Shown here: in pieces, positions 1,873 to 53,056 of the stretch
How the letters are laid out: the number at the start of each line of letters is the position of its first letter
Numbering within the stretch: the stretch's first letter is position 1
Assembly (NCBI GenBank): GCA_965225945.1
Contig: CBDDBZ010000038.1
Coordinates: 224,001 to 288,000, forward strand
Source: Alphaproteobacteria bacterium
GTDB taxonomy: Bacteria > Pseudomonadota > Alphaproteobacteria > GCA-2731375
DNA length: 64,000 nucleotides
Direction of reading: 5' to 3'
Program-made: the position numbers and the translations under genes
The notes under the pieces: model-generated
Databases searched by the model: none
The model's input: only the letters and a program-made list of their open reading frames with translations
What the model was told of the DNA's origin: nothing

Positions 1873-1917
1873 GAATGTCCGAAGCTGGGGGCAAACTCAC
1901 CGTCGAAGTGACAAGGC
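1873..1917 (+). repeat. Modular repeat unit S1 (GGGGCA core), cut by an IS110 remnant
   Basis: gaatgtccgaagctgggggcaaactcaccgtcgaagtgacaaggc aligns with 42706-42750. Confidence 0.7.
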
Positions 1918-2110
1918 TAGACCACATGTCCGGTTGAGTCCGGGGCGACCCGCCTCACGATATGCAGGCTTTCGAGGATTGCGTCGGATTGGCCGGCGCA
2001 GGGCCTCATGCATAGGAGACGAGTCATGAACGAGAATATCAGGTTTGTCGGTCTGGACGTGCACAAGTCGTCCACCCATGTGGCGGTCGCGGAGCGCGGC
2101 GGCGAGATGA
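1917..2110 (+). pseudogene. IS110-family left end plus 5' transposase fragment
   Basis: ATG at 2026 encodes MNENIRFVGLDVHKSSTHVAVAE (DEDD RuvC start) and then loses homology; preceded by a ~110-nt non-coding end starting at CTAG. Confidence 0.7.
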
Positions 2111-2239
2111 GGGAGCCCGGGCCAGCCGAGCCGACGCTATAGGGGTAATCTCGGTGAAGGTGAGGTAGCGTCAGAGTTTCGGGCACGGATCCGGACCCAG
2201 CCCACCTCAAAGCGGCGGGGCAACAGGAGGCGCGGCGTC

Positions 2240-2974
2240 ATGCGGTATGAACTCTACTATTGGCCATCGATCCAGGGCCGCGGCGAGTTCGTTCGCTTGG
2301 CCTTGGAAGCGGCCGGTGCCGACTACGTCGATGTGGCGAGAGGCGCGGAGGCACAAGGCGCCAGCATGTCCGCACTGCTCCGCTTGCTCGATGGCGAGAC
2401 GATTCCGCGTCCGCCCTTCGCGCCACCCTTCCTCAAGGCGGGCAAGCTCATGATGGGTCAAACCGCCAACATCCTCTTGTTCCTCGGGGCCCGCCATGGC
2501 CTAGCGCCGGCGAGCGAGGCGGGTCGATCGTGGGCCCATCAGCTGCAGCTCACGCTCGCCGATCTCGTAGGGGAGGTGCACGACACGCATCATCCGATCT
2601 CGAGCGGCCTCTATTACGAGGACCAGCGGAGGGAGGCCCGTGAGTGTGCCGCGGACTTTCTGGCGACGCGCGCTCCGAAATACCTCGGATACTTCGAGCA
2701 GGTCCTGGCGCGCAATCCCGCGGGCGAGCGGCATCTGATCGGGGCGAGGCTCAGCTATCCCGATCTCTCGCTGTTCCAGGTCGTGGCAGGGCTGCGTTTC
2801 GCCTTCCCACGGGCGATGGCGCGGCTCGAGGAGACCCATCCCCGAACCGTCGCCTTGCACGAGAGGATCGCAACACGGCGTCGCATCGCCGCCTATTTGG
2901 CCTCGGATCGTCGGATTGCCTTCAACGAGGACGGAATATTTCGCCACTACGAGGCGCTCGACTCCGAAACCTGA
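2240..2974 (+). CDS. Glutathione S-transferase family protein
   Basis: YELYYWPSIQGRGEFVRLALE, PFL..GQTANIL and LSYPDLSLF motifs; GGAGG RBS. Confidence 0.9.
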   Translation: MRYELYYWPSIQGRGEFVRLALEAAGADYVDVARGAEAQGASMSALLRLLDGETIPRPPFAPPFLKAGKLMMGQTANILLFLGARHGLAPASEAGRSWAHQLQLTLADLVGEVHDTHHPISSGLYYEDQRREARECAADFLATRAPKYLGYFEQVLARNPAGERHLIGARLSYPDLSLFQVVAGLRFAFPRAMARLEETHPRTVALHERIATRRRIAAYLASDRRIAFNEDGIFRHYEALDSET

Positions 2975-3080
2975 CCGCTGCCCCGCCTGGTTTTTCGTCG
3001 CGACGCTAACGCGTCGCATGGCCCGGCGGGCCGCGCGAGCGGCCATCGACAAAGAGCCGCGAGGGGGTCGGCGCGGGTGC

Positions 3081-4625: not shown

Positions 4626-4862
4626 CCGTCTGCTTGAGATACTAGCGTCCCTTCCGGACCCTTTTTAAATCTGTGACTGAAGAGCGCATAAATCAACCCA
4701 GCTTGTCGCTCGTTCGCACTTCAATATTACGGACCGGCTAATGATGCAGTGGACGGCTCCTGCCATCGGCATCGCAATGTGCCAAATTGCGGTTGCTTTT
4801 GAGGAGCCACCTACCTGAAATTTTGTCCACACATTAGAAAGATGGAATGTCAACTCTTGGCT

Positions 4863-5020
4863 GAGGCTGTTGAAAAAGTCGGTCAAGCGCCCGCTCGGTG
4901 GCGTTCGGCGAAAGAAAAGAATCGGGGGAGGGCCTGATCTGGTGCCATCTTTCGTCGGGGTTGGCCGGCGCGCATCAATCTTTCGAGCGCGAGGACCCAA
5001 AATACTTTTTCAACAGCCTC
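4863..5020. mobile_element. 158-bp MITE (IS5/IS1182-type ends)
   Basis: Perfect 17-bp TIR gaggctgttgaaaaagt / actttttcaacagcctc; 4-bp direct repeat GGCT at 4859-4862 and 5021-5024; no transposase. Confidence 0.85.
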
Positions 5021-5470
5021 GGCTATCAATGACCGAATCGACCACCACGGCCCAACGGGGATTCTACCCCCAACATACGACATTCGAGCGGCGCTCACGG
5101 GCCAGGCGGCTCGATCCCGTACTTCGCCGCGAGGCCGTCGACGAGCCAGGCCAGCCCTGGCCCCTCGGCGCACCTACGGCGCCGCGCCCCGGCGGGTAGA
5201 GCAAGTTGTGCTCGGCGGCGCCGGGAGCGCCGAACTCGTGCTCGGCGAAGTCCCAGAGGTGGGGCAACGACGACCGACACATAGTCTCCGTGCGAGCCCA
5301 AAGTCAGCAACGGCCCCCGCCGGACAGAAATCTGGTCCAGCGATTCGCCCGGCTGGCCGCCGAGCCCCATCTCGAAGTCGGCACCGCGCGGCGCGATCAG
5401 GTGCACCTCCACGGATAGGCCCTCGGCGACGCTCCGGAGCCCGGAGAGCCACCTTCCGGCCCTCGGGTAG

Positions 5471-5968
5471 GGGGCTAAGGGATTCACACATCTTCATGGA
5501 GTGACCAACCCTGTTGCATGGCTTGGAACTGCTGCCAGCCGTTGTGCATGGTTATGGGGCCGGGAGGACGTTCGGACTTATAGCCGTTCCACCCGCCGAG
5601 ACGGGCGATGATCCAGGCGAGCCAGGCCAGTGTTCCCTCGCGATGGGGATTCTTTTGCTTCCGTGTCTTGCCTTCGAGCCTGTGCAGCAGCGTGCGCGCG
5701 AAGGGATGGAACTCGGGCGCCAAGACATCGCTGGCCGGACGCTTGAGCCGGCCGTCGCGGGCGAACACCAACTGCATGATTCGGATCGCCGCCACGAGCG
5801 CCATCGCCGCCAGGTTCATCAGGGCCTCGGCGCTCGTGAGCTGGCTGCTCTCGATGTTCAGGCCCTGGCGCTTGAGGGTGCGGAAGACTTGCTCGATATG
5901 CCAGCGCTGGCGATACCAGCCGACGATGCGCCATGCGTCTTCCGCGCTTTCGACCTCATGGGTGGTCA
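5471..5968 (-). pseudogene. IS4-family (IS50/Tn5-like) transposase C-terminal fragment
   Basis: YRQRWHIEQVFRTLK (YREK) and WIIARLGGW..PPG motifs; N-terminus missing. Confidence 0.85.
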
Positions 5969-6316
5969 TGCCCAACAACGCCCGACCGGCCGGACTCGTG
6001 GTGTCGACGCCCTGCCGGTCGAGGTAGAGGTCGACGCCGAGGGTACGGAGTGTCGCAAACAGCCCGACCAGCTGCCGCGGCGACCTCCCAAGGCGCCTGA
6101 CGTCGCTGGACCACTTCCCCTCCGGCGCCCCGCGGCCCGGCGCCAGAGGCGGTCGGGGGATATGACCAGCGGGTCGAAAGAGGGAACGACGGCCTCGCCG
6201 AGGCTCCCCAGCACGCGACTGGCGGTACCAGAGTATGTTCCTGGCGGCGAACGCCCCGACCGCGCGACGCGCGCCATCGTCCCCTGGCGCCGATCAGGAG
6301 ATCCAGGCGCCTTCAC
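5968..6316 (-). pseudogene. Degraded serine resolvase (catalytic domain)
   Basis: One frame reads RRLGRSPRQLVGLFATLRTLGVDLYLDRQGVDTTSPAGRALLGM, typical of resolvases; frameshifted upstream and cut by the IS4 fragment. Confidence 0.7.
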
Positions 6317-6345
6317 CGGGACGCGTATGGGAGCCGGTCGGCGGT

Positions 6346-6375
6346 CTTTCCCATTTCTAACCTTTAATGGGAAAG
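6346..6375. promoter_or_regulatory. Inverted repeat, putative recombinase binding or crossover site
   Basis: ctttcccatt-N10-aatgggaaag lies immediately upstream of the recombinase; a third half-site (aatgggaaagt) is at ~6444. Confidence 0.55.
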
Positions 6376-6392
6376 TCTGCTATCCTCGGCCT

Positions 6393-7025
6393 ATGGAAAA
6401 CAAGCCTCTATCACCCAAGTCGAAGCCCAGGCCGAACACCGTAAATGGGAAAGTCCCCCCGCCGCGTCGGCCGAACGCCGCGCGACGGCCGCGTGAATAT
6501 CTGACCGAGAAGGAAGTCGACCAGCTGATCGAGACGGCCCGCAAGCGGGGACGCCACGGGCATCGAGACTCGACGGCGATCCTCGTCGCCTACCGGCACG
6601 CGCTCCGCGTGTCGGAGCTCTGCTCGCTCCGATGGGACGCGATCGACCTCGAAAGCGGCCTCATGCACGTCCGGAGGCTCAAGAACGGCACGCCGAGCGT
6701 CCATCCCCTCCGTGGCGTCGAGATCCGCGCACTCCGGAGGCTCGAACGCGAGACGCCGGTCTCTCCCTACGTCTTCACGACCGAGCGCCGGGGGCCCATG
6801 ACCCCGGCGGGGTTCCGCAAGACCTTGGCGGCGATCGCCGAGGCCGCGTCCTTCCCCTTCCCGATCCATCCCCACATGCTTCGCCACTCCGCCGGATACA
6901 AGCTGGTGAACGACCGTGAGGACACCCGCTCCGTCCAGCACTACATGGGGCACAAGAACATCCAGCACACCGTGAGATACACGGAGCTCGCCACGGGTCG
7001 GTTCGACAGCTTCTGGGAGGACTGA
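6393..7025 (+). CDS. FimB/FimE-like tyrosine recombinase
   Basis: REYLTEKEV, RHALRVSEL, HPHMLRH and YMGHKNIQHTVRY motifs; catalytic domain only (210 aa); the longer ORF from 5514 is read-through. Confidence 0.88.
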   Translation: MENKPLSPKSKPRPNTVNGKVPPPRRPNAARRPREYLTEKEVDQLIETARKRGRHGHRDSTAILVAYRHALRVSELCSLRWDAIDLESGLMHVRRLKNGTPSVHPLRGVEIRALRRLERETPVSPYVFTTERRGPMTPAGFRKTLAAIAEAASFPFPIHPHMLRHSAGYKLVNDREDTRSVQHYMGHKNIQHTVRYTELATGRFDSFWED

Positions 7026-8265: not shown

Positions 8266-8387
8266 CCGGAGCCAGTGGAGCCGGCTCCAGAGCATTGTTT
8301 CATTATTGGGGAATGCCATGAGGAGAGGAGCAGAAGGGAAAGGATATAGGAAAACAATAGGACGGTGCCGGCTCCACCGGCTCCAGG
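8266..8387. other. Putative satellite/plasmid replication origin remnant
   Basis: GGWGCC/GGCWCC iterons and palindromes around a purine-rich core; homologous to the reverse complement of 38144-38237. Confidence 0.4.
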
Positions 8388-8519
8388 TGTGGAACGGCGT
8401 GCAAAGTTGACCCCTGTGCCATGAGGAGAGGAGCAGAAGGGAAAGGATATAGGAAAACAATAGGACGGTGCCGGCTCCACCGGCTCCAGGTGTGGAACGG
8501 CGTGCAAAGTTGACCCCTG
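8314..8519 (+). repeat. Exact 103-bp tandem duplication including the first 29 bp of IS21
   Basis: 8314-8416 is identical to 8417-8519. Confidence 0.9.
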
Positions 8520-13842: not shown

Positions 13843-13975
13843 CGCGTCGATCCCGTGAAGGCGGATGCGCTCCCCGGCGATCTCGATCAGTCGCCGTCGA
13901 TCACGCGGCCGGACCCGTGACGTCGGCCAGGGCGAGGGTCGGGAGGAGCGTGAGCACGAAGGCAAGGCGGAGCAT
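13843..13975 (-). pseudogene. Thermonuclease (SNase) 5' fragment F1
   Basis: MLRLAFVLTLLPTLALADVTG..IEIAGERIRLHGIDA with a frameshift; homologous to 28701, 33272 and 53073. Confidence 0.8.
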
Positions 13976-14029
13976 GGTGGGGAGCGTAGCAGGGCCGGCG
14001 TGGTGTGCATGCGATGGCCATTCGCCACG

Positions 14030-14125
14030 ATGTCGGCTTTCGCTCAGATCACGTCCGGTGTACCCCCAAGACTCACCTAAACATTAGCTGGCGCTAACGG
14101 GAGATTGTTGATCCGCAGCAGCCAT
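14030..14125 (-). repeat. Modular repeat unit S2
   Basis: Reverse complement: atggctgctgc-GGATCA|acaatctcccgttagcgccagCTAAT-gtttaggtgagtct-TGGGGGTA-caccggacgt-gatctgagc-gaaagccgacat. Confidence 0.8.
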
Positions 14126-14443
14126 ACCGGAATGTGGCGGAGAGATTGACCGTCGCCCGCGATTGAGGCTCCACTCAGTCCTATAAAAACTGAGGCAATT
14201 GAAGTCCCGCCATTTTCCGCAGCGGCCTACCAAGGGTTCAAGGATTTGCGACGGCCGGAACCAGGACACGTGCTACTTTGCCAATGCAGGGGGCGCAACT
14301 TGACCCGGTCTGGCCATTACACAAGGAAACAGCCGCCGAAGGAGGGGTGGCAATACCGCCAAACCATCTCCTAAAAATCGCACCGCTTAGATCGAGCCGA
14401 TCTGATAGTGCGGTCCATGCACAAGCAATAGGGAGTATTCGCG

Positions 14444-15450: not shown

Positions 15451-15741
15451 GCAACGGCGAGTCAACCCCCAGCAATTGACCTCCATCGGATGCAGGTCCG
15501 GAATCGCCCCTCGATGGTAACTACCCAGGTCTGATTGGCCCGAGCGTTTGTATGTGAGGGATCGTGGGGGTCCGGGCTGGTAGCGGTGCCGGTGTTCTCA
15601 GAGGCGCAGTTGGGGGATTAGTTGCATCGGATCGGGATGCACCAGGGTCTGGAGGACGTTCCAGCCTTGCTTTCGTGAGTCGGACCCGATTTCCTTGGAC
15701 ACAGAATTGGCTTAATCGAAGTGTCCAAGGAGGACCGGAAC

Positions 15742-39377: not shown

Positions 39378-39380
39378 TAG
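38298..39380 (+). CDS. IS630 transposase
   Basis: [19 protein letters not shown] and WLSQVERFF motifs. Confidence 0.95.
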   Translation: MTKTLACIWLSPAERVTLEGLVSGRNTPQKLVWRARIVLLSADGIGTMTIVRLVGKSKVTVWRWQERYLAKGIAGLRRDATRPGRKPPLSAEVIERVVHKTLHETPEAATHWSIRKMARAVGLSYTSVQRIWKAHGLKPHLVKTFKLSNDEHFVEKVRDIVGLYLDPPDKALVLSVDEKSQIQALDRTQPGLPIKKGRAGTMTHDYKRHGTTTLFAALDVATGKVIGHCMKRHRHQEWLKFLRRIDAETPKKLDLHLIADNYATHKHPKVKAWLAKHPRFHMHFTPTSASWLSQVERFFGLITSDQIRCGVFKSVAELETAIQEYLEHHSADPKPFVWTASATAILEKVARGRQALESVH

Positions 39381-39410
39381 CGCAGGGAAGAGATCGGGGA
39401 GGGGACGGCG

Positions 39411-40760: not shown

Positions 40761-41508
40761 GCGGACATTCTGTCGACCCGGTGGAGGTCGTCGTCGGACA
40801 TCCGGGCCAACCGGGCATCTACGCGGCCGAGCAGTCAACCTCTCTCGCCGCCGGTCTTAGGTACCGGACGGCGATATCGAGCGGATCTTGGAGGCCGCAC
40901 GGCACAGTCCATCAGGGGCCAACGCGCAGCCCTGGCATTTCGTCGTCGTCGAGTCGATCGAGACCAAGGCGGCGATCGGCGACTATTTCATCGCCGAGGC
41001 GACGCGCCGGGCCAAGCTCAAAATGAAGTTTCCAACGCCGAATTATGCCGGCATGAAGACGGCGCCCGGCTTCATCGTTGTGATAGCCGATTTTCGCTAC
41101 GTCGATGCCTTTCCGGTGCTGAACGACGGTTCCGAGCTCGACACTATGTACCGCAAGAACGCGGAAAGGATCCTGCTGCAAAGCGTCGCCGCCGCGACAA
41201 TGGCGGCGCATCTGGCCGTGGCCGCGCTCGGTCATGCGGTCTGGTGGGTGACGGCGATCGGGCAAGAAGCCGCCCAGCAGGCACTGAGGCCGCTCCTCGG
41301 CGTGCCCGACGACCTCTCGGTCATCGACATCATGTGCTTTGGTGCGCCCTTAAAGCTACCCTATACGCGCTGGAAGAAGGACCTGGCCACGATCCACAGC
41401 CGAGACCGTTTTGACATGTCGAAATATCAGTCCCCGGCGGAGATCGACGACTGGATTCGCAATACCCGTCACAAGGTGATGTATCAAGACCAGACTAAAG
41501 TCGATTGA
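40757..41508 (+). pseudogene. Nitroreductase-family protein, frameshifted near the 5' end
   Basis: ATGA overlap with the amidase; LEAARHSPSGANAQPWHFVVV intact from 40888. Confidence 0.8.
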
Positions 41509-41593
41509 TCGGGAGCAGATCGCACGGCCTCGAAATTCTCTAAACCGGAATTCCCCAGATGGCTTTTCCGAATCGCCGAGGAGGGACGCTGCC

Positions 41594-42547
41594 ATGATCA
41601 TCGCCGCCGACAACATCGACAGGCTTCTGGCCGTCGAGATGCGCCGTCAAGGCATCCCGCGCGGCTTCAAGTGGCGCATCTTCGAGATCGCCCGGCGATG
41701 GCAGGGCGAGCCGCTGTGCCTGGCCGCGGCCCGGCCACTGATCGGCACGCCGATGCGCGTTGCCCTCGTCACCGGCGCCTGGGTGCCGGAGCATATGCCG
41801 GTCGGGGAAAGCGACGGGCCCTACGGGAGCGTGATACTGGCCCGAGCCCTAGCACGGATCGGCCATGCTGTGACGATTTACACCGACCGCGAGACCGCGC
41901 CGCCGATCAATTTCCTGGCCGACTACCTTGGCGGGGAGGCCACGGTCGAGGCGGTCGGACGCGACGACGACGGCGCCAATTCGCGAATCGCCGAGGAAAA
42001 CGACGCCTTCATCGCCGTCGAGCGCCTGGGCCGGAACGTCAACGGCATTCTGTACAGCATGAACGCCTTTCCACTCTCCGAGCATCAGCATGCCTTCGAC
42101 GACTGCGTTGATATGATGCGGGCCGCCGGCAAACCGGCCATTTCGATCACCGACGGTGGCAACGAGATCGGCTACGGCGTCATACGTGACGCCCTGATCG
42201 AAGCCCTGCCGGACCTCAATCTCGCCGATAAGACGGCGTGCGGCGGCGGAATCGTCTCGGCTACTGAATGCGATGTGCTAGTCGTCGCGAACTCCTCCAA
42301 CCTCGGCGCCTACGGCGTCGTTGCCGGACTGGCGCTTCTGACAGGAGATGCAACGCTATGCCATGAGCCAGCGGAGGAACTGGCGCTGCATCACGTCGGT
42401 GTCGGTCTGGGACTGATCGACGGCGGCGGGGGTGGCGCGGTCGCTGCTTGCGACGGTATACCCGCCGAGGCCAGCGCCGCCGTCGTGCACCTCGTCCAGA
42501 ACATCGTCGAGCGAGCCCTCGAGGCGCCGCGCGAGCGCCCCTTCTGA
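41594..42547 (+). CDS. D-glutamate cyclase-like (DUF4392) protein
   Basis: ESDGP, AVERLG, DGGNEIG and SNLG motifs. Confidence 0.82.
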   Translation: MIIAADNIDRLLAVEMRRQGIPRGFKWRIFEIARRWQGEPLCLAAARPLIGTPMRVALVTGAWVPEHMPVGESDGPYGSVILARALARIGHAVTIYTDRETAPPINFLADYLGGEATVEAVGRDDDGANSRIAEENDAFIAVERLGRNVNGILYSMNAFPLSEHQHAFDDCVDMMRAAGKPAISITDGGNEIGYGVIRDALIEALPDLNLADKTACGGGIVSATECDVLVVANSSNLGAYGVVAGLALLTGDATLCHEPAEELALHHVGVGLGLIDGGGGGAVAACDGIPAEASAAVVHLVQNIVERALEAPRERPF

Positions 42548-42705
42548 GCCCTATCCGACGTCGGCCTCGCACAGTGGAGCGCCGCCGCGACCTTCTCTCG
42601 GTGAGCGCCCGGCAACGCTTGAAGATCCATGCGCCTCGGCATTGGCCGATACAGAGCCGTGTCGGGGGACGATTGCCGAGAGTGGTTCGCGAACCGGGTC
42701 GGATG

Positions 42706-42795
42706 AACTTCCGCAGCTGGGGGTATATTCCCCGTCGAGGCGACACGGCCGCTTAGGCGATTGGTAGCCAGCATTTTCCGTTAGCGGAATCTAAT
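42706..42795 (+). repeat. Modular repeat unit S8
   Basis: aacttccgcagc-TGGGGGTA-tattccccgtc..ggccgcttaggcgattgg-TAGCCA|gcattttccgttagcggaatCTAAT. Confidence 0.85.
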
Positions 42796-42935
42796 TTCGG
42801 GAAGAGGAATGCGAGCGACAGTGCCTCATGACGCATCAAGGGCAACGGATTGAATTGACAGCCCCACCGAGGCTCTATAGCGTCCCTGATGATCGCGCCC
42901 GGGACCTCGACTCGATGACGCAGGGGGAGGAGAAC

Positions 42936-44066
42936 ATGAGAAAAAGCAGGCTTGGTCGCGCGTCGGCTGTCGCCGTCGCCGCCGCGTTCACGGTTGCAAC
43001 GCTGATGATTGGCGTGTCCACCGCCGCCAACGCCGAGTTGCAAAAGGTGATCATCCGCGTCTCGGTCGATCTGCCGCCGCCGCCTCATCCGACGGCCATC
43101 GCCATGGAATGGTTCAAGAAGCAGGTGGAAGCGCAATTCCCCAAGGGCAGCGAGGTGCGCAATTTCTACGCCGGCGCCCTTTACAAGGACCCGGACGCCT
43201 TGTCGGCGATGACCCAGGGCAACCTGGAGATGGGCTGGCTCGTCACGGGCAAGACCGCAGCCACCGACATCTGGCTGAGCATCATCGGCCAGCCCGGTGT
43301 CCTTACCACCGTGGCCGCCATTCATGATCTCCCGAACCAGCCCACAGGTAAGATGCTGCTCGATCGGCTGCGTGAGAAGCACGGCATCGTTCCCTTCGGA
43401 TTCGCCGACCTGAGCTTCGCCCTCGCTATGGCGGGCAAAGAGCGTCTGCTCACCGTGGACTCGTTCAAAGGCAAGAAGATCCGCACATTCGCCGCGGCAG
43501 TGAACCCGGTCGTGGCCTCCTGGGGTGCCTCGCCGGTGGTGATGTCGTTCGGCGACGTGCCCAGCGCCCTCGAGTCCGGAGTTCTCGATGGCATAATCAC
43601 CTCCATCGGGGGCTGGCGCTCCATCACCGAGCAAACCCCCTACTATACCATTGCAGGCATCTCCACGGTCACGTTCGACAACTACTGGGTCGGCGCGAGC
43701 GCACAATGGTTCAACAACCTGAACCAGGATACGCAGGCCAAAATCAGGGAGCTCACCACCCAGGCCATCAGCTACCAGAACGAACTGAACTGGTGCAACG
43801 ACGAGTTCGCCATCCGAGAGTTCAAGGCGAAGACCCCGTCCGAGCCCGGAATCTACGTGGCCACAGCCGCGGAAGCGAAGCCGTTGCAGCAGGCTATCGG
43901 CAACAACGTGGCCAATTATCTCAAGGAAAAGCTGCCACAAGAGGCGCATGCCTGGGTCGACCGGTACCTGGAGGAAGGACGGGCTGCGTCCGCTCGCCTC
44001 GGCCCCGGCAGCGACCCGGTAGAGAGTCTGGACTGCGCCAAGCACGAGCCAGTCCTGAAGAGATAG
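42936..44066 (+). CDS. dctP: TRAP transporter substrate-binding protein
   Basis: Signal peptide, FKGKKIR, WGASPVVMSFGDV..ALESGVLDG. Confidence 0.9.
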   Translation: MRKSRLGRASAVAVAAAFTVATLMIGVSTAANAELQKVIIRVSVDLPPPPHPTAIAMEWFKKQVEAQFPKGSEVRNFYAGALYKDPDALSAMTQGNLEMGWLVTGKTAATDIWLSIIGQPGVLTTVAAIHDLPNQPTGKMLLDRLREKHGIVPFGFADLSFALAMAGKERLLTVDSFKGKKIRTFAAAVNPVVASWGASPVVMSFGDVPSALESGVLDGIITSIGGWRSITEQTPYYTIAGISTVTFDNYWVGASAQWFNNLNQDTQAKIRELTTQAISYQNELNWCNDEFAIREFKAKTPSEPGIYVATAAEAKPLQQAIGNNVANYLKEKLPQEAHAWVDRYLEEGRAASARLGPGSDPVESLDCAKHEPVLKR

Positions 44067-44088
44067 CGCGGGATCCCCGACAGTGGAA

Positions 44089-44688
44089 ATGGAGGGCCAA
44101 CCCGACCCTCCCCGACCGGACGCCATGAGCAAACTGTTCTGGGCGTGGCGCACGTTTCAGGAGTCGTTCCTGCAGTACGTCGCGGCGCTGCTGCTACTCG
44201 GTCTGACACTCCTCGCGGTGCTGGAAGTGATACGCCGCTACGTCTTCGGCGTGTCCTTTGAATGGCAACAGGACGCAGTGACCTACGGAATCCTCTCCGG
44301 CGTGTTTCTGTTCTTTGCCATTACCCAAAGCCGCAAGGCCCACCTGCGCGTGACCGTTTTCCTCCTCCTGCTGCGTGAAAAGGGCGGGCGCCCGGGCTCC
44401 ATCATGGCCACCGTCCTGGAAATATTCGGTGCCGCGGTCGGCATCGCCTTCTGCGTCTGGTTGGTCTGGCACGGAATCGAAGCGATACAGCTGATGATCA
44501 GTCAGGGCCGCAGGACGGAGAGCCTGTTGTTCCCGCTCTGGCTGTTCTTCGCCGTCTTCCTGGCCGGCATGGCATTCCTCGCGGTGAGCTTCTTCTTCCA
44601 GCTCATTCACGAAATTCGGGTTCTGCGCGGCAAGGAACGGCCCGTGGACAGATACGAGGAGGAGGGAGCGGGCGGCTCGCTTCTCTAG
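44089..44688 (+). CDS. dctQ: TRAP transporter small permease
   Basis: Four TM helices, VIRRYVF, HLRV; start uncertain. Confidence 0.88.
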   Translation: MEGQPDPPRPDAMSKLFWAWRTFQESFLQYVAALLLLGLTLLAVLEVIRRYVFGVSFEWQQDAVTYGILSGVFLFFAITQSRKAHLRVTVFLLLLREKGGRPGSIMATVLEIFGAAVGIAFCVWLVWHGIEAIQLMISQGRRTESLLFPLWLFFAVFLAGMAFLAVSFFFQLIHEIRVLRGKERPVDRYEEEGAGGSLL

Positions 44689-44760
44689 CTCCATCAAGAC
44701 GCTCGGCACAACGCCTCGGTAAGTCTCCTAGCCCCCGTCCAGCCCACGAGAAATCACACG

Positions 44761-46050
44761 ATGGGTGCTCTCCTCGTCAGTATCCTGACGTTTCTCGGCT
44801 CGGGCGTCACCATCGGCATCGCCATGGGGGCGGCGAGCATGCTGTTCATCCACTTCGATCCGCTGCTAGACGCCCGCGTGCTCTCCCAGAGCTTCTTTGC
44901 CTTTCTCGGCAGCTACAGCCTGATGGCCGTGCCGCTGTTCATTTTCGCCGGCTTCCTGATGGAACGAACCGGGATGATCCGCCAGCTCTTCGAGTTCGCC
45001 GAAGCGCTGGTGAGCTGGGTCTTTGGCGGCTTCGGGCTCGCCACGGTCACCACCTGCGTGCTCTTCAGCGCGATCTCCGGCTCCAGCGTCGCGGTCGCTT
45101 CCGCCATGAGCATCATCGCCATCCCGGAGATGCGCTTGCGCAACTACCCGGACTGGCTGTCGGCGGGCATCGTCGCCTCGGGCGGGGGGATCGGCCTGCT
45201 CATTCCGCCGAGCCTCTCCCTGATCATCTACGGCATCGCGACCGAGACCTCCATCGTGCGCCTGTTCATGGCCGGCGTCGTGCCCGGGCTTATGCTGGCC
45301 ACCGGGATGTACGTGGTGATCATCATCGCCGCGTGGCGCATCCCGGGCCTGGACCGCGGCGAGTTCCGGCTGAAGCCCCTGCTGACGAGCACCTGGGGCG
45401 CGCTGCCCGGTCTCGGTATGCCCGTGCTGGTGCTGGGTGGCCTTTACGGTGGGCTGTTCACGCCTACGGAGGCGGCGGCGGCGGCCTGCGGGTATGCGCT
45501 TGTCTACGGCCTCATCAGCGGGCGTGGACGGTTCCTGCGCGAGCTGTTGCCGGTTGCCGCCCGCGCCATGAATCTCTCGGCCGTGGTCTTCTTTCTGGTC
45601 GGCAGCGTGGGCATATTCCAGTTCGTCGCCGCCAATCAGGCTTGGCCCCAGCAGCTGGCGCAGATGGTCATCGACATGCATCTGGCGCCCCTGCCGTTCC
45701 TCTTTGGCTACCTGGGCCTGCTGCTGATGCTCGGCACCTTTCTGGACGGCATCGCCATGATCCTGTTGACCGTGCCGGTGGTCTTTCCGGTGGCCCGCGC
45801 ACTCGGCATCGATCCGATCCACCTCGGCATCATCGTGACCATGGGCGTGGAGCTCAGCGTCATCACCCCGCCGGTCGGCTTCAACCTCTATGCGGTGAGC
45901 GGCATTGCCCGGATCCCCATCCAGACGGTGCTTCGCGGAGCCATGATTTTCTTTCTGTCCGATCTCGCCGTGACCCTCATCATCGTCCTTGTGCCGGAGT
46001 TCTCCACATGGCTCCCCAAGACGCTGAGCGCCCCATCTCCGTTCGAGTAG
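44761..46050 (+). CDS. dctM: TRAP transporter large permease
   Basis: AVPLFI, ISGSS, IPPS, FTPTEA and TPPVG motifs. Confidence 0.93.
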   Translation: MGALLVSILTFLGSGVTIGIAMGAASMLFIHFDPLLDARVLSQSFFAFLGSYSLMAVPLFIFAGFLMERTGMIRQLFEFAEALVSWVFGGFGLATVTTCVLFSAISGSSVAVASAMSIIAIPEMRLRNYPDWLSAGIVASGGGIGLLIPPSLSLIIYGIATETSIVRLFMAGVVPGLMLATGMYVVIIIAAWRIPGLDRGEFRLKPLLTSTWGALPGLGMPVLVLGGLYGGLFTPTEAAAAACGYALVYGLISGRGRFLRELLPVAARAMNLSAVVFFLVGSVGIFQFVAANQAWPQQLAQMVIDMHLAPLPFLFGYLGLLLMLGTFLDGIAMILLTVPVVFPVARALGIDPIHLGIIVTMGVELSVITPPVGFNLYAVSGIARIPIQTVLRGAMIFFLSDLAVTLIIVLVPEFSTWLPKTLSAPSPFE

Positions 46051-46053
46051 ACG

Positions 46054-46190
46054 ACCACGACACCGATCTCCTTCAGGTCGTCCTCGCCAAGGTAAGGCAA
46101 TGCATCGAGATCGATCTCGTTCTCGGTGAACACGTCCACGTATTTACCGAGGCCTAGATCGTCCAACCAGTTGGCGATGTCGTGCGCCAT
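46054..46190 (-). pseudogene. SAM-domain 5' fragment (adenylate cyclase-type)
   Basis: MAHDIANWLDDLGLGKYVDVFTENEIDLDALPYLGEDDLKEIGV, then abuts the dctM stop. Confidence 0.8.
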
Positions 46191-46270
46191 TCCTGCCTCA
46201 ATGAGACCTGGTCTAAATGGAAGCTTAGGTGCATTTTGGCCCGCGTAATCCATTGGCACAGGCCGGGTCG

Positions 46271-46291
46271 CCGAATGTCTCTTGTGGGTCA
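46271..46291 (+). repeat. Left half of repeat S9
   Basis: ccgaatgtctcttgt-GGGTCA| immediately before the Int-IS91 element. Confidence 0.75.
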
Positions 46292-46435
46292 AGGCACTAA
46301 ATCGCTACGCGATATTTCGTGGGTGAGGGGTCATGGCGCGCCCAGCCACCGCCGTGGATTTCATCGATAACACTTCGAGCGCTCGTTCCTGATCATTGAG
46401 GTCTCGTCGACCTCAACTCAGGAAGGAGCATCTCC

Positions 46436-47347
46436 ATGACGACGACGATGACCCCATTGCGCCAGCGCATGATCGAGGACATGAACGCCCGCAAGCTGGT
46501 GGCGGGCACGCAGAAGGGCCACCTCCGCGGCTGCGAGCGCTTTGCCGTGTTTCTGGATGGCTCGCCCGATACCGCCGTGGCCGAGGACGTCCGCCGCTTC
46601 CAAGTTCATCTGGCGGAGAGCGGGATGAGCATCTGCAACCGCAACCGGACCATGACCGGGCTCCGTTTTCTGTTCCGCGTGACCTTGCGACGGCTCGATC
46701 TCGCGGCGGAGATCTTCCACATCCGCGAGCCGCAAAGGCTGCCGAAGGTGATGAGCCAGGACGAGGCCAAGCGTCTCCTGGTGATGGCCCGGAACCTGAA
46801 GACCCGCGCGCTGCTCTCGCTCGCCTATGGCTGTGGCATGCGAGCGGGCGAGGTGGTGCGCTTGCGCGTCGGCGACATCGACAGCGCCCAAGGCATCATC
46901 CGTATCGTCCAGGGCAAGGGCCGCAAGGACCGTAACGTGATGCTGTCGAAGGGACTGCTGGCGTTGCTCAGGCAATGGTGGCGGGCCCGCCCGACCCGCC
47001 ACGACGCGGGCGTGCCTGCGCAACAGCGCTGGCTCTTCCCCGGTCGCGAGGCGGGGCGGCACGCCACGACCCGGCAGTTCAGCCGGTTGTTCGAGGAGGC
47101 GGTGGCCGCCGCCGGGATCACCAAGCACGTGACGCCGCACTCGTTGCGGCATTCCTTCGCCACCCACTTGCTCGAGCGCGGCACCGACATTCGCTACATC
47201 CAAGCGCTTTTGGGCCACGACAAGCTCGACACCACGGCGCGTTACACGCGGGTCGCGACCGGCACCATCGCCGCCATCGAGAGCCCGCTGGATCTCTTGT
47301 CCAAGCCCGGTGGCAAGAAGCGGAAGAAGGCCAAGCCGTCGGGGTAG
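46436..47347 (+). CDS. Tyrosine integrase
   Basis: Identical to 23525-24436 apart from an A/T change near the C-terminus. Confidence 0.93.
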   Translation: MTTTMTPLRQRMIEDMNARKLVAGTQKGHLRGCERFAVFLDGSPDTAVAEDVRRFQVHLAESGMSICNRNRTMTGLRFLFRVTLRRLDLAAEIFHIREPQRLPKVMSQDEAKRLLVMARNLKTRALLSLAYGCGMRAGEVVRLRVGDIDSAQGIIRIVQGKGRKDRNVMLSKGLLALLRQWWRARPTRHDAGVPAQQRWLFPGREAGRHATTRQFSRLFEEAVAAAGITKHVTPHSLRHSFATHLLERGTDIRYIQALLGHDKLDTTARYTRVATGTIAAIESPLDLLSKPGGKKRKKAKPSG

Positions 47348-47723
47348 CGCCGCCGGGTCGTGACAGCCCATGGGTTGGAGGTCGCGGAAATCTTCCGCGA
47401 CTTCGGCCCCGCCTGGCGTCGGGCCAATGCCGGCCACGTGAGCTTGCAACAGCTGAAGGTCATGAGCGCCATCGAGCGCTGCCGCACGGCCGCGCTCGGC
47501 GGGCACGTCTTGGCCTGCGATGTCAATCGGCGTTGAACATTGACCCCCTATCGGCGTGCAATGTTGACCCCTTTGGGGATGCACGGCGGAGGTCGTACAG
47601 GTAGTCCATAGGAGGGGCCCGCGCGCGGGCCGACGCGCCCACCACGCGGCTGGCGGCGGACCGCGCGTGGGAGGTTCCTGTGGGCCCACCTGGGTGACCG
47701 GGCGGCAGGTGGATCGGTTGCCT

Positions 47724-48452
47724 TTAGGACCGATTCTTGAAGCGCCAGGAGTCGTTTCCGGTCTCGATGATCTCGCAGTGGTGCGTCAGACGATCGAGGA
47801 GCGCGGTGGTCATCTTGGCGTCGCCGAAGACGGACGGCCATTCGCCGAAGGTCAGGTTGGTGGTGACGATGATCGAGGTGCGCTCGTAGAGCCGGCTGAC
47901 GAGGTGGAACAGCAGCTGGCCTCCGGTTTGGGCGAAGGGCAGGTAGCCGAGCTCGTCGAGGATGACGAGGTCGCGCCGGGCCAGCTGATCGGCGAGCCGG
48001 CCCTGGCGGCCGGCGCGGGCTTCGGCCTCGAGCCGGTTGACCAGGTCGACGACGTTGAAGAAGCGGCCCCGGGCGCCATCGCGGATGCAGGCCCGCGCGA
48101 TGGCGACGGCGAGATGGCTCTTGCCGGTGCCGGTGCCGCCGATCAGCACGGCGTTGCGCTGGTTGGCCAGGAAGCCGCCGACCGCCAACTCGCGGACCAG
48201 CGGCTCGTTGACCGGGGTGTCGGTGAAGTCGAAGTCGGCCAGCTCCTTGGCCAGCGGCAGCTTGGCGCCACTCATCTGGTACTTGATGGATCGCGCCTGC
48301 TTGTCGGCGATCTCGGCCTTCAACAGCTCGCCGATGATTCGCTGCATCGGATGCTGGCGCTTGAGGCCGTCGGCGAGCACCTCGTCGAACGCGTCGCGCA
48401 TGCCGGCGAGCTTGAGTGCGGCCATCATCTCCAGGACCTCATGGCGCTCCAT
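47724..48452 (-). CDS. istB: IstB
   Basis: Identical protein to copy 1. Confidence 0.95.
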
Positions 48453-49950
48453 GGCCGACCCCCCTCAAGCGGTCGTAGCGGGTGCAATCGGCCACCGGCT
48501 CAAAGCGAAGACGCAGGTTCGCGGGCGTCGGGATCGGCGCCGTCTCGGACGGCTGGCGCCGACGATTGAGGATGTTGAGCACGACGTCGGCGCTGCACAC
48601 GCCGCCAGCGAGCGCCTCGGCACAGGCGGCCTCCACCGCCGCCAGCCCATCCGCCAGCACGGCGGTGAGGATCTCGACCATCTGCCTGTCGCCGTCGTCG
48701 TGGCCGGCGAGCCGGACGCGCACGCGACCCAGGGCGCCGGGCAGCGCCCAGTCCTTGAACGGCGCGCCGTTACGAAGCGCACCGGGCTTCCTCGCCAGCA
48801 CGGGCACGTAGTGCCACGGGTCATAGACGGTCTGGTCGCGGCCGAAGCGCCGGGCATGCTCGGCGACGATCTCGCCGTCCTGGCGGATGACGATGCGATC
48901 GGCGTAGGCATGGACCTCGACCGGACGGCCGACGGCGCGCGCCGCCACGCTGTACTTGTTGCTGTCGAAGCGCACCAGGCAGGTCTTCGACACCGACGCC
49001 GGGACCGCGTGGAAGCCGTCGAACGGCCCGCGATAGCCGACCAGGGACGGACGCTCGTCCTCGAACACCTGCCAGACAGTCCTGTCCTTGAACACCGGGT
49101 GGGGATGACGCCGGGCGTAGGCGACGCACTGGTCCAAGAGCCAGGCGTTGAGCTCGTCGTAGGTCTTGAAGCGCAGCCGCGGGGTGAAGAACCGACCGCG
49201 GATGATCCCGACCTGGTTCTCGACCTGCCCCTTCTCCCATCCCGCTCCCGGCGTGCATGCTGTCGGTTCGACCAGGTAGTGGCCACACATCTGCACGAAG
49301 CGCCGGTTGAACGCGCGCTCCTTGCCGATGAGGACGGTCTGCACCGCCGTCTTCATGTTGTCGTAGATGCCTCGCCGGCAGGCACCCTGGAACAGCCGGA
49401 ATGCCCGGTCGTGGGCGTCGAACACCATCTCCTGGCTCTCGCGCGGATAAGCGCGGACGAAGAACATTCGGCTGTGGCACAGCCGGACGTGCGCGACCTT
49501 GACCTTGGTCGTCACCCCCGCCAGCACCACGTACTCGTGGCTCCAGTCGAACTGATAGGCCTCGCCCGGCGAGAACACCAACGGCACATAGGTCTGCGCC
49601 GTCGATGCCGAACGGCGCCACCGCCACGCCTTGGCGTAGCGCCGCACCGCGTCGTAGCCGCCGCCATAGCCCAGACCCTCGAGGGCTTCGGAGATCCGTA
49701 GCAGCGTCAGCCGCTCCCGCTTCGACTTGGTCTCGTTGGCCTCCAGCATCCGCTCCAGCTCGGCCGTCCACGGCCCCAGCTTCGGCATCGGCTGGACCCG
49801 CCGGTCGTAGGTGAACGCCGTCGCCTGCGAACGGATCACCTTGCGCACCGTGTTGCGCGAGACCTTCACGTCCCGCACGATCTCCTTGATCGGCTTCCCC
49901 TTGACGAAATACTCCCGCCGGATCCGCGCTATCGTCTCCACGACCAACAT
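48439..49950 (-). CDS. istA: IstA
   Basis: Near-identical to copy 1. Confidence 0.95.
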
Positions 49951-51478
49951 CCCCCACCACCTCGTCCGCCCAAAAACGAGGTGACTTGGACTAGCCAGGC
50001 TCAGGGGGTCAAATTTGGACGCCGATCACCCCTCAACAGGGGTCAACTTTGCACGCCGTTCCACAGCCTGCGAGGACTGCGAGCACACCCAGATCGCCTA
50101 CAACTCGTGCCGCAACCGCCATTGCCCCAAGTGCCAGGGGGCGGCGGCCCGGGACTGGTTGGCCGAGCGCGAGGCCGAACTACTGCCCGTCCCCTACTAC
50201 CATCTCGTCTTCACCCTGCCGGCGGCGATCGCCGACATCGCGTACCAGAACAAGGCCGTCGTCTACGACATCCTGTTCAAGGCGAGCGCCGAGACCATGA
50301 TCACCATCGCCGCCGATCCAAAGCACCTCGGCGCCAAGATCGGCATCACCGCCGTGCTCCACACCTGGGGCTCGGCCATGACGCTTTACGGCGCCGTGCT
50401 CGGACCGATGGCGCACCGGCGCCTCACCACACATCCACATGATCGTGCCCGGCGGCGGGGTCTCTCCGGACGGCACGGAATGGATTGCCTGCCGGCCCGG
50501 CTTCTTCTTGCCCGTCCGCGTGCTCTCGCGCCTCTTCCGCCGGCTCTTCATCGAGAAGCTCGCCGCCGCCCACGAGACCGAACGTCTGAAGTTCTTCGCC
50601 GAGCACGCGGGCCTCGCCGAACCGGCGGCGTTCGGCACCTTCCTCGCGCCCATGCGCAAGAGTGAATGGGTCGTCTATGCCAAGCGCCCCTTCGGCGGGC
50701 CCGAGGCCGTGCTCGCCTACCTCGCCCGATACACCCACCGCGTCGCCATCTCCAACCGCCGCTTGCTCCGCCTCGACAACGGCGCCGTTACCTTCACCTA
50801 CAAGGACTACCGCCGCGACGGCGCCGAGCGCTACGGGACCATGACCCTCGATGTCGCGGAGTTCATCCGCCGCTTCCTCATGCACGTCCTGCCCAAGGGC
50901 TTCCACCGCATCCGACACTACGGCCTCTTTGCAAACGGCAACCGCGCCGCCAACATAAAACGCGCTCGCGAACTGCTCGGCGGACCACCGGCGCCCGACG
51001 CCAGCGAGGAAGAGGCCTCGGAGCCTCCCGAGGACCAACGCCAGGGCGCCCGACCGTGCCCCCGTTGTGGCGGTCCCATGATCGTCGTCGAGGTCTTCGA
51101 GGCCGGCTGTCAACCAAAGGCCCGTTCACCGCCGAAGGCCATCGATAGCTCATGACACCGACCCAAAACATCAGCCACCTTCCCCGCCGAGCCTCGGCGC
51201 TCGACTTCGCTCGCCCGGGACACCGAAAACGGCGGCATCGTTGGCCGCCCCGGCCCCGCTCGTGCCCCCCTCGGCAACGCTTCACCGCGCTCGACGATCT
51301 CCTTATGGCGCCTCACGCCCCATATGCGGGTCGTCCAGACGACACCACCATCGACGCCACGCTCAAATCCCCATAGCGACGCCTGTATCCCGCGATTTCG
51401 TGCCTTGGCGCTTCTCGGACGCCGGCAAACACCGCGCCTCACTCCCTATGCCGGCAAGGCATCCGAGAAACCTGCACA

Positions 51479-51504
51479 TGATTCTCCGTCAAGCATCTTC
51501 TAAT
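51479..51504 (+). repeat. Right half of repeat S9 (continues at 53006-53020)
   Basis: tgattctccgtcaagcatcttCTAAT is 21/26 identical to the S5 module. Confidence 0.75.
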
Positions 51505-53005
51505 GGAGCGTCCGGACCTGGGCGTGTTCCGGACGTCGATTCGGCGAAAGATGGTGTATCGCGGCGGCTGTGCCTGATGATATCAGGATGAGCGCAGCCC
51601 CTTCACGCATGATCGTTGAATCGGGGTCGCCCTGACCTCGAACATCGAGAAAGGAGCGACGACGATGGCACATTTTGTAGGTCTGGATGTTTCGGTGAAG
51701 GAGACGGCGGTATGCGTCGTCGACGAGGTTGGCGAGGTGGTGTTGGAGCGGAAAGTACCGACCGAGCCGGATGACATCGTCACGCTGCTGACCTCGATCG
51801 GCGAGGCCTATGGCCGGGTCGGGATCGAAGCCGGTCCGCTCTCGCAATGGCTGGTCAACGGTCTGGCTGCTACCGGGCTGCCGGTTGTCTGCGTCGAGAC
51901 TCGGCACATGCAAGCGCTGCTCAAGGGGCAGCAGATCAACAAGAGCGACCGCAACGATGCACGCGGCATCGCCCAGATGATGCGGGTCGGGCTGTTCAAG
52001 CCGGTGCATGTGAAGACCCTGGTTGTCCAGGAGCAGCGGATGCTGCTGACCAGCCGCAAGCTGCTCCAGAGAAAACTGCTCGACGTCGAGAACGATCTAC
52101 GCGGGACGCTGCGCAACTTCGGTCTCGAGGTGGGCAAGGTCAGCACCCGCGGGTACGAGGCGCGGATCCGCGAGCTGGTCGAAGATTTTCCGAAGTTGGC
52201 CGCTATCGTGGAACCGCTGCTCACCGTCCGGCGAGTGATGCGCCAGCAATTCGCGGTCCTCCACAAAATGGTGCTCGACACGGTCCGCCATGACCCGGTC
52301 TGCCGACGGCTCATGACGGCACCCGGCGTCGGCGTGGTCGTCGCGCTGACCTACCGGGCTACCATCGATCAGCCGCAGCGCTTCGTTCACTCCAGGGCGG
52401 TCGGCGCGCATGTCGGCCTGACGCCGAAGCGCTTCCAGTCCGGCGAGATCGACTATGATGGTTGCGTGTCCAAGTGCGGCGACAGCATGCTCCGCACGAT
52501 GCTGTACGAGGCCGCGCAGTCCCTCCTCACCCACGGCCGGAAATGGTCCTGGCTGAAGGCGTGGGGCATGCGAGTGGCCCAGCGACGTGGCATGCGCCGT
52601 GCCATCGTCGCCGTCGCGAGGCGCCTGGCCGTAGTTCTGCACCGCATGTGGGTCGACGGCACCGAGTTCCGCTGGAGCAACGGCCCTGCTGACGCCGTCA
52701 AGGCGGATTGAACCTTCGACTGTACTGACAAGGAGATCAACGAGTTCTGCTTAGGCAGAGAGATGTCCTCACGGGGACGACGGGTGGGGTGAGTTCGTAA
52801 TGTCGGTAGACCCTGCCGCTGACCGGCGGCAAGGACGCGCGAAAGATTGAACCGCCTCATCCTCTGATCCCATCATGAGGTGGCCACGCGCCAACCTCGA
52901 AGAGAAGCAAGAGCCCCGTGCGGCAACATCCGCCAGTGCGGAACGACGTGAAGAAGGAATATGGCATGACGTAACCAGAAAGGGCTTGACCGAGGACGCG
53001 ATAGA
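51496..53005 (+). mobile_element. IS110-family (IS1111-group-like) element; left boundary uncertain by ~10 bp
   Basis: Transposase plus ~290-nt downstream non-coding region; weak subterminal IR (gcgtcc/ggacgc); TTGACC near the right end. Confidence 0.8.
51665..52711 (+). CDS. IS110-family DEDD transposase
   Basis: VGLDVS, GIEAG, KSDRNDA, PGVG and GLTPKRFQSGE motifs. Confidence 0.95.
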   Translation: MAHFVGLDVSVKETAVCVVDEVGEVVLERKVPTEPDDIVTLLTSIGEAYGRVGIEAGPLSQWLVNGLAATGLPVVCVETRHMQALLKGQQINKSDRNDARGIAQMMRVGLFKPVHVKTLVVQEQRMLLTSRKLLQRKLLDVENDLRGTLRNFGLEVGKVSTRGYEARIRELVEDFPKLAAIVEPLLTVRRVMRQQFAVLHKMVLDTVRHDPVCRRLMTAPGVGVVVALTYRATIDQPQRFVHSRAVGAHVGLTPKRFQSGEIDYDGCVSKCGDSMLRTMLYEAAQSLLTHGRKWSWLKAWGMRVAQRRGMRRAIVAVARRLAVVLHRMWVDGTEFRWSNGPADAVKAD

Positions 53006-53056
53006 GAAGCCGACATTCGGCCGTCGGCCCCCGCCGCATGCGCGCCATCCCGGCCC

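Follow-up and report, generated by a model that had tools for sequence, protein, structure and literature searches.

Short repeats whose flanking DNA changes abruptly, and always at the same nucleotide, may mark either a system that shuffles gene cassettes or a target that mobile elements strike repeatedly. This question is raised by a stretch of 64,000 nucleotides (hereafter the window; positions 224001-288000 of contig CBDDBZ010000038.1, here C38) in an alphaproteobacterial genome (assembly GCA_965225945.1; 6.27 Mb, 66% G+C, 39 contigs), of which it makes up about 1%. A sequence-only reading of the window had described about 11 degenerate lox/dif-like units between 1.9 and 53 kb and had proposed that they form an array from which a recombinase excises and reorders cassettes. 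The units fall into two repeat families, termed A and B2 here. We consider it probable that their core and arm are landing pads for several site-specific insertion sequences (ISs), and not points of cassette shuffling.

Used as single nhmmer queries, the 11 units of the window led to 67 places in the genome. An iterative nhmmer census of the whole 6.27 Mb (E<=1e-3) gave 45 copies of family A (~77 profile positions, ~100-110 nt with its ends) and 47 copies of family B2 (64 positions, ~65 nt); covariance-type models, which used sequence only, gave 51 and 55 matches, respectively. The confinement of the units to 1.9-53 kb did not hold, because copies of A and B2 are spread over more than 20 contigs, with other clusters on C24, C29, C34 and elsewhere on C38. 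Nine of the 92 profile matches lie in the window (A at 14033, 19983, 33438, 38025 and 51549, the last two on the minus strand; B2 at 5021, 24581, 34453 and, on the minus strand, 42770), together with weaker copies at 35326 (A') and 1873 (a degenerate B2). The window is about tenfold enriched in the repeats, yet the repeats are not special to it. By a crude gene call based on third-position G+C content, which covers 72% of the genome, 89 of the 92 copies are intergenic.

A copy of A opens with an arm of ~10 nt (CCRAATGTCSG); its body contains TGTACCCCC and a small hairpin, ATTAGC..GCTAA. GGAGA and the core TTGACCC come next and, 5 nt further on, the inverted arm. In B2, the core TTGGCTA comes first, then the body and finally the inverse arm, and the arm is often also found 5-8 nt upstream of the core. 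Degenerate inverted arms of ~10 nt bracket both modules. Because the sub-motifs CGAATCGNC and TNTACCCCC recur in both, A and B2 are probably related modules that have diverged. Column identity averages 61% in A and 75% in B2, for which the MAFFT columns place two subtypes in different registers. At six loci B2 is followed by A after a gap of 14-26 nt, the junction consisting of two inverted arms of ~9 nt that lie ~8 nt apart. For half sites, the lox/dif-like geometry is real: compared with a reversed-sequence control, the arm followed by the core occurred 22 times versus once, and the core followed by the inverse arm 24 times versus twice. The complete arm-core-arm site is not over-represented, a relaxed pattern giving 40 matches in the genome versus 91 in the control. 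The strict arm motif matched 39 times in the genome against ~27 expected, mostly outside the matches of the hidden Markov models (HMMs); the arm is therefore too degenerate for a census by regular expression.

Two elements insert beside the core. ISX is a 2.6-kb element with four copies in the genome, two of them in the window, one of which is split by an IS21-family element. Its IS91-family transposase gene is frameshifted (22759-23562 and 22269-22985), both halves pass the IS91 equivalog model NF033538 (207 and 198 bits, cut-off 125), and the Pfam domain Zn_Tnp_IS91 was found. ISX also encodes a tyrosine recombinase of 303 aa (23525-24436), for which the best NCBIfam models are the integron integrase TIGR02249 (191 bits, below its cut-off of 265, with the match split into two stretches) and then XerC. 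A preprint (10.1101/542381) groups IS91-borne recombinases with integron integrases and describes them as lacking the IntI-specific insertion. ISY is present in ~20 copies that are ~99.7% identical to one another and 82-85% identical to ISX in the transposase gene; its open reading frames (ORFs) for the transposase (404 aa) and the recombinase (315 aa) are intact. ISX and ISY both begin with TGT and have asymmetric ends, with a subterminal hairpin visible at the target-proximal end only. As a side observation, the two frames of the ISX transposase (22269-23562) overlap and cover profile positions 1-149 and 156-355, and a second copy in the window is 100% identical to this one.

ISX and ISY are inserted in one orientation, without target duplication and immediately 5' of NWTG-RCYM (4 ISX and 22 ISY ends), a motif that marks where B2 begins and, in A, the 3' end. 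The recombinase-proximal (right) end of ISX abuts TGGCTA in three of its four copies and TGACCC in the remaining one, whereas the left flanks are unrelated in two of the four. By reading, a variable NWTG is followed at once by TG[GA]C[TC] in 13 of 22 recombinase-proximal ISY junctions; of 23 flanks at the other end of ISY, 7 consist of the 3' part of A copies that differ and have diverged from one another. Since these flanks are diverged and the ISY copies nearly identical, ISY has inserted repeatedly and independently at one position of A. The comparison covered 41 related genomes, this one among them; G001 and G002 belong to the same genus, G002 being the closed genome of a sister species. 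At the G002 locus L170, the same ~30-nt flank as at window 21900-21945 is joined directly to a B2 start; L170 is the empty, duplication-free counterpart of the ISX insertion site. In its transposase model, the lack of duplication and the insertion beside a tetranucleotide, the behaviour of ISX and ISY matches the IS91 family. For that family, a published account (PMC13181058) describes insertion without duplication beside a specific tetranucleotide adjoining one end, and documents one-ended transposition that carries neighbouring DNA.

The same target was found far outside the genus. With the ISY recombinase as the query, 359 stretches from a collection of species-representative genomes encode a relative, and the best 80 loci come from Alpha-, Beta- and Gammaproteobacteria, Gemmatimonadota, Nitrospira, Acidobacteriota and others. 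In foreign genomes with several copies, an identity of 99-100% stops at the conserved end ..GCGGTTTAGTCC, and the flanks differ between copies. This end motif located 58 junctions in the 80 loci, and the ~20 nt that follow show conservation at individual positions: T at position 3 (40/58), G at 4 (55/58), C at 6 (49/58), C at 13 (44/58), G at 15 (52/58) and C at 17 (44/58). Core-like flanks occur at 33 of the 58 junctions against 0.79 expected, and flanks resembling core plus arm at 19 against 0.13 expected. As this flank is common to 58 elements of the IS91 type with a recombinase, the core and right arm described in the window are the conserved target, the flank beside which elements of this IS91 subgroup insert. 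Searching the 80 foreign loci with the profiles of A and B2 themselves gave one match (L093, E = 2e-4). At the far end of the elements, the first 20 nt have a similar layout, and because both this end and the target carry CGGACA ~13 nt from the junction, the target may be recognised through its resemblance to that end. Elements of this type are already known, since the annotated pair of an IS91 family transposase and a tyrosine-type recombinase/integrase (NCBI Prokaryotic Genome Annotation Pipeline, PGAP) occurs in 438 plasmid records; a literature search, whose scope did not extend to ISfinder, TnPedia or paper supplements including IS91 target-site tables, found no paper describing this target.

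A sequence starting GTGTGCC.. was also noticed abutting the recombinase-proximal end of two ISY copies (C38:212485 and C9:32074) and of an IS91-type element with a recombinase on a plasmid of Bradyrhizobium sp. CB82 (L178, ~400-535). We presume its resemblance to be to the 5' end of a group II intron.

The units of the window and the elements inserted at them are as follows (window coordinates, strand).

1873-1945, minus: degenerate B2-like unit, recognised by eye and below the family HMM threshold; as an nhmmer query it gave one other weak match.
4858-5020, no strand: miniature inverted-repeat transposable element (MITE) of ~165 nt with inverted ends of ~16-19 nt, inserted inside the core of the B2 copy at 5021, between TGGCT and A.
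5021-5083, plus: B2 copy (nhmmer; C38 229021-229083), overlooked in the sequence-only reading.
14023-14134, plus: A copy with arm, body, hairpin-like ATTAGC..GCTAA and TTGATCC core (nhmmer, alignment).
15454-15516, plus: left part of a B2'.A' composite, cut by an IS66 element; likewise overlooked.
15517-19982, no strand: IS66-family element with nested IS3-like pieces, splitting the B2'.A' composite (Pfam DDE_Tnp_IS66, rve).
19983-20060, plus: right part of the A' unit (nhmmer).
21946-24578, minus: ISX copy 1, between a unique flank and a B2 start (Pfam, NCBIfam; uninterrupted site at L170 of G002).
24581-24644, plus: B2 copy abutting the right end of ISX, which reads ..GTGC and then TA TGGCTA (nhmmer, flank reading).
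33428-33540, plus: A copy (nhmmer).
34453-34516, plus: B2 copy (nhmmer).
35326-35392, plus: A' copy truncated at TTGACC by the following element.
35393-36615: 1.2-kb IS with a DDE transposase, ~55 copies in the genome.
37958-38036, minus: A copy, earlier placed at 37954 (nhmmer).
42706-42770, minus: B2 copy (nhmmer), also inside a segment 98-99.9% identical to G002.
46271-46293, minus: core and arm TTGACCC-N5-GACATTCGG; this is where the A unit with its body at 51479-51550 has its 3' end.
46294-51478, plus: ISX copy 2, split by an IS21-family element at 47516-50065 (Pfam, flank reading).
51479-51550, minus: A-unit body between ISX and an IS110-family element (nhmmer).
51551-53009, plus: IS110-family element (transposase 51665-52711) in the left arm of the A unit (Pfam, NCBIfam).
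53010-53020, minus: leftover arm CCGACATTCG of the A unit beyond the IS110-family element.

As the list shows, the original observation was largely right. On inspection of the sequence, every coordinate given for a unit carries one, the homology stops at a fixed place next to TGGCTA or TGACCC, and the orientation is plus for 14-35 kb and minus for 38-53 kb. The two units described as split, 21921+24581 and 46271+51479, are real and have ISX inserted in them; two pieces were overlooked, the B2 copy at 5021 and the left half (15454-15516) of the unit at 19983. The supposed exchange of flanks at the core does take place at a fixed, sequence-defined point, but the changes of context are largely IS ends, namely those of the two ISX copies, the IS66 element, the 1.2-kb IS and the IS110-family element. 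These insertions therefore account for the split units, including the one that ends at 53020, and for the three different contexts said to follow TAGCCA. For at least six units of the window, the flank change is accounted for by an identifiable IS.

The arm is a target in its own right. The IS110-family element at 51551-53009 (PF01548 and PF02371; NF033542 at 250 bits, cut-off 140) has 11 copies in the genome, six of which lie 116-118 nt from an A match with the same junction, while one lies in a B2 arm; in these seven repeat-borne copies the junction reads AG^CCGACATTCGG. Besides IS91-type and IS110 elements, the units are interrupted by IS66, the 1.2-kb DDE-transposase IS, IS630-like elements and the 165-nt MITE. 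The IS66 insertion is flanked by an 8-bp duplication, CCTCGATG, at 15509-15516 and 19983-19990, and its end is repeated ~17 times in the genome. A 165-nt MITE occupies the same position in a B2 core of G002 (L077 10540-10706; 94% identical).

The explanation that we favour runs as follows. A and B2 are two related intergenic repeat modules, restricted to a few related genera and present in about a hundred copies in this genome. The core plus arm, YTGRCYM-N5-CGGACATT, is the landing site of an IS91 subgroup with an integron-like tyrosine recombinase, represented by ISX and ISY, and the arm alone is that of the IS110-family element. The apparent exchange of flanks directly after CA is therefore mostly nested insertion at one fixed nucleotide and not a shuffling of cassettes. 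Orientation-specific insertion without duplication, possibly with one-ended read-through of the IS91 type, may have built the co-oriented, IS-rich stretches.

The proposed scan of the genome and its relatives with profiles was carried out and, in addition to the hundred or so copies here, found the repeats in congeners. B2 matched 55 times in this genome, 29 times in G002, twice in G001 and once, weakly, in each of two other genera, that is, in 5 of 41 genomes. A was found in 14 of the 41 genomes, which represent three genera of one family: all three genomes of the genus (51, 34 and 5 matches), and 1/1 and 10/13 genomes of two other genera. None was found in eight genomes of the family's other five genera or in 16 genomes of other families. 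No target duplication was seen around A or B2 copies. Orthologous empty sites for A or B2 were not found in G001 and G002, where the flanks are too diverged; in one comparison, homology stopped at the stop of a gene, 180 nt before the A copy. Apart from A and B2, there is a third dispersed repeat family of ~160 nt that also ends in ATGACCC, with nine matches in G002 (for example L077 2392-2554) and eight in this genome (for example C31:85019-85180 and C34:265-267 kb).

Breakpoints between relatives had been expected at the cores. One segment bears on this: window 39377-46295 (6.9 kb), with an amidase, a nitroreductase, a D-glutamate-cyclase-like gene, B2 and a tripartite ATP-independent periplasmic (TRAP) transporter, is 98.4-99.9% identical to L077 2694-10391 of G002. 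Because other flanks are too diverged to align, this identity indicates that the accessory segment was transferred recently between the two species. Its left breakpoint lies exactly at a core (..CTTGACCC behind ISX here, ..CTAGACCC behind unrelated DNA in G002), in line with the expectation; its right breakpoint is the end of an IS630-like element.

Several observations weigh against the repeats being only a target. Among neighbouring copies, counted when they lie at most 15 kb apart, 39 of 42 pairs in this genome and 28 of 29 in G002 are co-oriented, which a passive target role leaves unexplained. Their order is also uneven: A precedes B2 in 19 pairs here, B2 precedes A in 12 (six of them direct junctions), and A-A and B2-B2 pairs number four each, while G002 has 18 A-then-B2 pairs among its 29, many of them isolated and 0.8-4 kb apart. 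Direct junctions of B2 followed by A recur (3-26 nt; six in this genome, four in G002), whereas no direct A.B2 junction, the empty form, was found. The A..B2 pairs of G002 contain no ISY-type recombinase, the single, 100% identical copy in that genome lying away from them, and no recognisable IS91 element stands on the G002 side of the left breakpoint of the 6.9-kb segment. An unfiltered comparison of the two repeat profiles with the ends of ISX and ISY gave nothing below E = 0.6. The insertion could be made by either the HUH transposase or the recombinase. The facts left unexplained would fit serial IS91-type insertion with read-through, or the ends of old non-autonomous units, or, least likely, exchange at the core.

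The content between neighbouring copies ranges from no to seven called genes in both orientations and from 0 to 100% multi-copy IS DNA; ten intervals of G002 likewise hold genes of mixed orientation and ISs. Two A-then-B2 intervals contain one small gene each, one of 939 nt with a beta-lactamase-fold gene (33555-34442, the only gene between A at 33438 and B2 at 34453) and one of 414 nt with an ORF of 74 aa. Paralogous loci keep the same neighbour beside A, a 5' fragment of a secreted-protein gene, at ~80% identity, which argues that there has been little shuffling. The orientation of copies relative to flanking genes is inconsistent, and the GC skew around them gave too faint and noisy a signal to link orientation with replication. 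Contigs of four metagenome runs aligned with window 32000-51999 showed no circle or deletion junction apart from one weak contig joint; most joints have sides of 20-26 letters and were not used, and runs X9 and X12 left parts uncovered (36669-38002).

Three further observations concern these regions. In a contig of run X9 (depth 5.6), the A body at 51550 is joined to B2 at 42716 through 26 letters; this recreates a B2.A arm-arm junction without IS110, is weak (one run, minimum likeness 92), and could be a paralogous composite, a tandem or a circle. A contig of run X1 connects 36615 with 35393 through 18 letters, so that the 1.2-kb IS meets itself head to tail; this may come either from a circle or from a tandem. 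From one gene without a Pfam match, the upstream DNA and the 5' end, which covers the signal peptide, are present four times at 68-91% identity (13843-14018, 28736-28937, 33309-33421 and 53035-53271), three adjoining an A copy and one cut by an IS630-like element.

Could the cores nevertheless be att-like crossover sites of the recombinase of ISX/ISY, or of another one, with the A-B2 segments as its cassettes? The best-matching families of the recombinase, integron integrase and XerC, and the grouping with IntI in the preprint (10.1101/542381) make the suggested link to a tyrosine recombinase plausible, even though the match stays below the cut-off. The ~20-nt conserved flank far exceeds the 4-nt target of IS91, the copies are co-oriented with A before B2, two intervals from A to B2 hold only one small gene each, one cross-species breakpoint falls at a core, and the B2.A junction presents two inverted arms of ~9 nt at a distance of ~8 nt. 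Shuffling by this enzyme is another matter. The complete site falls below its control, the empty A.B2 junction is missing, the cargo is of mixed orientation, often of several genes and mostly IS, paralogous units have kept their neighbour, the recombinase lacks the IntI-specific insertion and has a split profile match, and circle or deletion junctions were not seen, save for the weak joint. Together with the genome-wide spread of the copies, these findings speak mostly against an array that excises and reorders cassettes, and we regard this explanation as unlikely. A hybrid scheme appears rather improbable as well: the HUH transposase would copy out a circle, and the recombinase would integrate it at a ~20-bp att-like site, YTGRCCC-N5-CGGACAT, common across phyla; the co-oriented A..B2 frames of this genus would then form a dispersed capture platform, loosely integron-like without attC.

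A more serious competitor, which we hold to be possible but doubtful, posits mostly non-autonomous transposable units with A at the left end, B2 at the right end and bounding inverted arms of ~11 nt, moved or accreted by rolling-circle or one-ended transposition of the IS91 type or by another transposase; the B2.A junctions would be adjacent units or derivatives with a deleted interior. It would make sense of the prevailing A-then-B2 order and the isolated pairs of G002, of the inverted arms that bracket each module, of B2 copy numbers that differ strongly among congeners (55, 29 and 2) and of the clustering of copies in IS-rich regions, and one-ended IS91 transposition with neighbouring DNA is documented in the account cited above (PMC13181058). 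Against it, no common transposase lies inside the pairs, target duplications were not seen, the copies are old by their column identity, the strict arm motif is hardly above expectation, and neither module resembles the ends of ISX or ISY. Non-coding elements of host genes, with A as a promoter, leader or small RNA and B2 as a terminator or 3' element, for example of adenylate-cyclase/tetratricopeptide-repeat (TPR) paralogues, are very unlikely. The copies are intergenic, A ends in GGAGA..NTG like a ribosome-binding site with a start codon, and cyclase-type genes follow some A copies; both the window and L170 of G002 have such genes between A' and B2. Nonetheless, an Rfam scan of the window at E<=1 returned only two sub-threshold matches to microRNA models, both inside IS3-like copies, and a tRNA search of the window found none. 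A folds no better than shuffled sequence in all eight copies (z from -0.93 to +0.68); B2 folds modestly better (4 of 10 copies below -1.8), and RNAalifold on 30 B2 copies gave two pairs without covariation and no consensus structure. Orientation relative to flanking genes is inconsistent, and the downstream ORFs are mutually unrelated. Least credible of all are palindromes of the REP/REPIN type (repetitive extragenic palindromes) spread by a RAYT (REP-associated, Y1 HUH) transposase, which we give hardly any weight. A and B2 are a dispersed intergenic repeat family, the genome has Y1_Tnp domains (eight matches, five over the cut-off), and REPs are targets of the IS110 family; set against this, the modules measure 65-110 nt, A is not palindromic, and three of the Y1_Tnp matches are near-identical and appear to be of the IS200 type.

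Repeats that serve as landing pads for ISs are a known theme. IS110-family elements have such targets, IS621 in the REPs of E. coli and IS4321/IS5075 in the inverted repeats of Tn21-type transposons. As there, a dispersed repeat is struck repeatedly at one nucleotide, here by 7 of 11 copies in the arm; unlike a REP hairpin or a 38-bp transposon end, the target is an arm of ~11 nt common to two longer mosaic modules. The attC sites of integrons are likewise targeted, by IS1111-attC elements and group IIC-attC introns, and with them A and B2 have in common that co-oriented repeats of 60-140 nt stand between genes, are struck by several site-specific elements and are associated with an IntI-like recombinase. 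In contrast to an integron, there is no intI-attI platform, the copies occupy more than 20 contigs, and R''/R' boxes are absent by eye against the consensus, as the sequence-only reading had said; A has no strong single-strand fold, the cargo does not consist of single co-oriented ORFs, and the recombinase scores below the cut-off of the integron integrase model. Mosaic repeats such as the bacterial interspersed mosaic elements (BIMEs) of E. coli, the rhizobial intergenic mosaic elements (RIMEs) and the BOX elements of pneumococci are comparable, as are Bru-RS1/2 of Brucella, which are hot spots of IS711. These are also modular, intergenic, ~100-180 nt long, lineage-restricted, composed of common sub-motifs and hot spots for ISs, but A and B2 are strongly co-oriented in a fixed A-then-B2 order and A is little palindromic. 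In the pdif modules of Acinetobacter plasmids, XerC/D sites with an 11-6-11 consensus flank genes in alternating orientation. A and B2 also bracket genes with short sites of the recombinase type; unlike pdif sites, they are co-oriented and the complete inverted-arm site does not rise above background.

With IS91 and ISCR elements, ISX and ISY have in common the lack of duplication, the asymmetric ends with a subterminal hairpin, a fixed tetranucleotide (NWTG, compared with CTTG/GTTC in IS91) and a possible accretion of neighbouring genes. They differ in a conserved flank of ~20 nt instead of 4, which adjoins the end upstream of the genes, and in the additional tyrosine recombinase. A widespread IS91 subgroup thus seems to select a site of ~20 nt; the only target known for the family measures 4 nt. 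If it is true that the recombinase makes this choice, the elements would represent a new combination of rolling-circle copying with site-specific integration. Landing-site repeats channel IS insertion and thereby shape which regions of the genome become IS-rich and plastic, and the window is an extreme case.

The IS load of the window is considerable, with at least ten IS copies from seven families within 64 kb. Three IS21-family copies are identical, and further elements are of the IS66, IS3-like, IS630-like, IS5-like and IS1595 types. There are four tyrosine-recombinase genes. A single-copy gene 431 nt downstream of a B2 copy (5514-7025) encodes a protein of 503 aa. Over its last 180 residues this protein is similar to tyrosine-type DNA invertases (132 bits, cut-off 221), and its long N-terminal part has no match. 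Two adjoining tyrosine-recombinase genes at 54380-56967 encode proteins of 385 and 372 aa, the latter of the P4 type with an arm-binding domain and only a partial catalytic domain, and an exact 36-nt repeat is found at 56668 and 56970. Just beyond the end of one IS21-family copy lies a perfect 103-nt tandem duplication (8314-8519), and its 50-nt end recurs beside the other two IS21-family copies.

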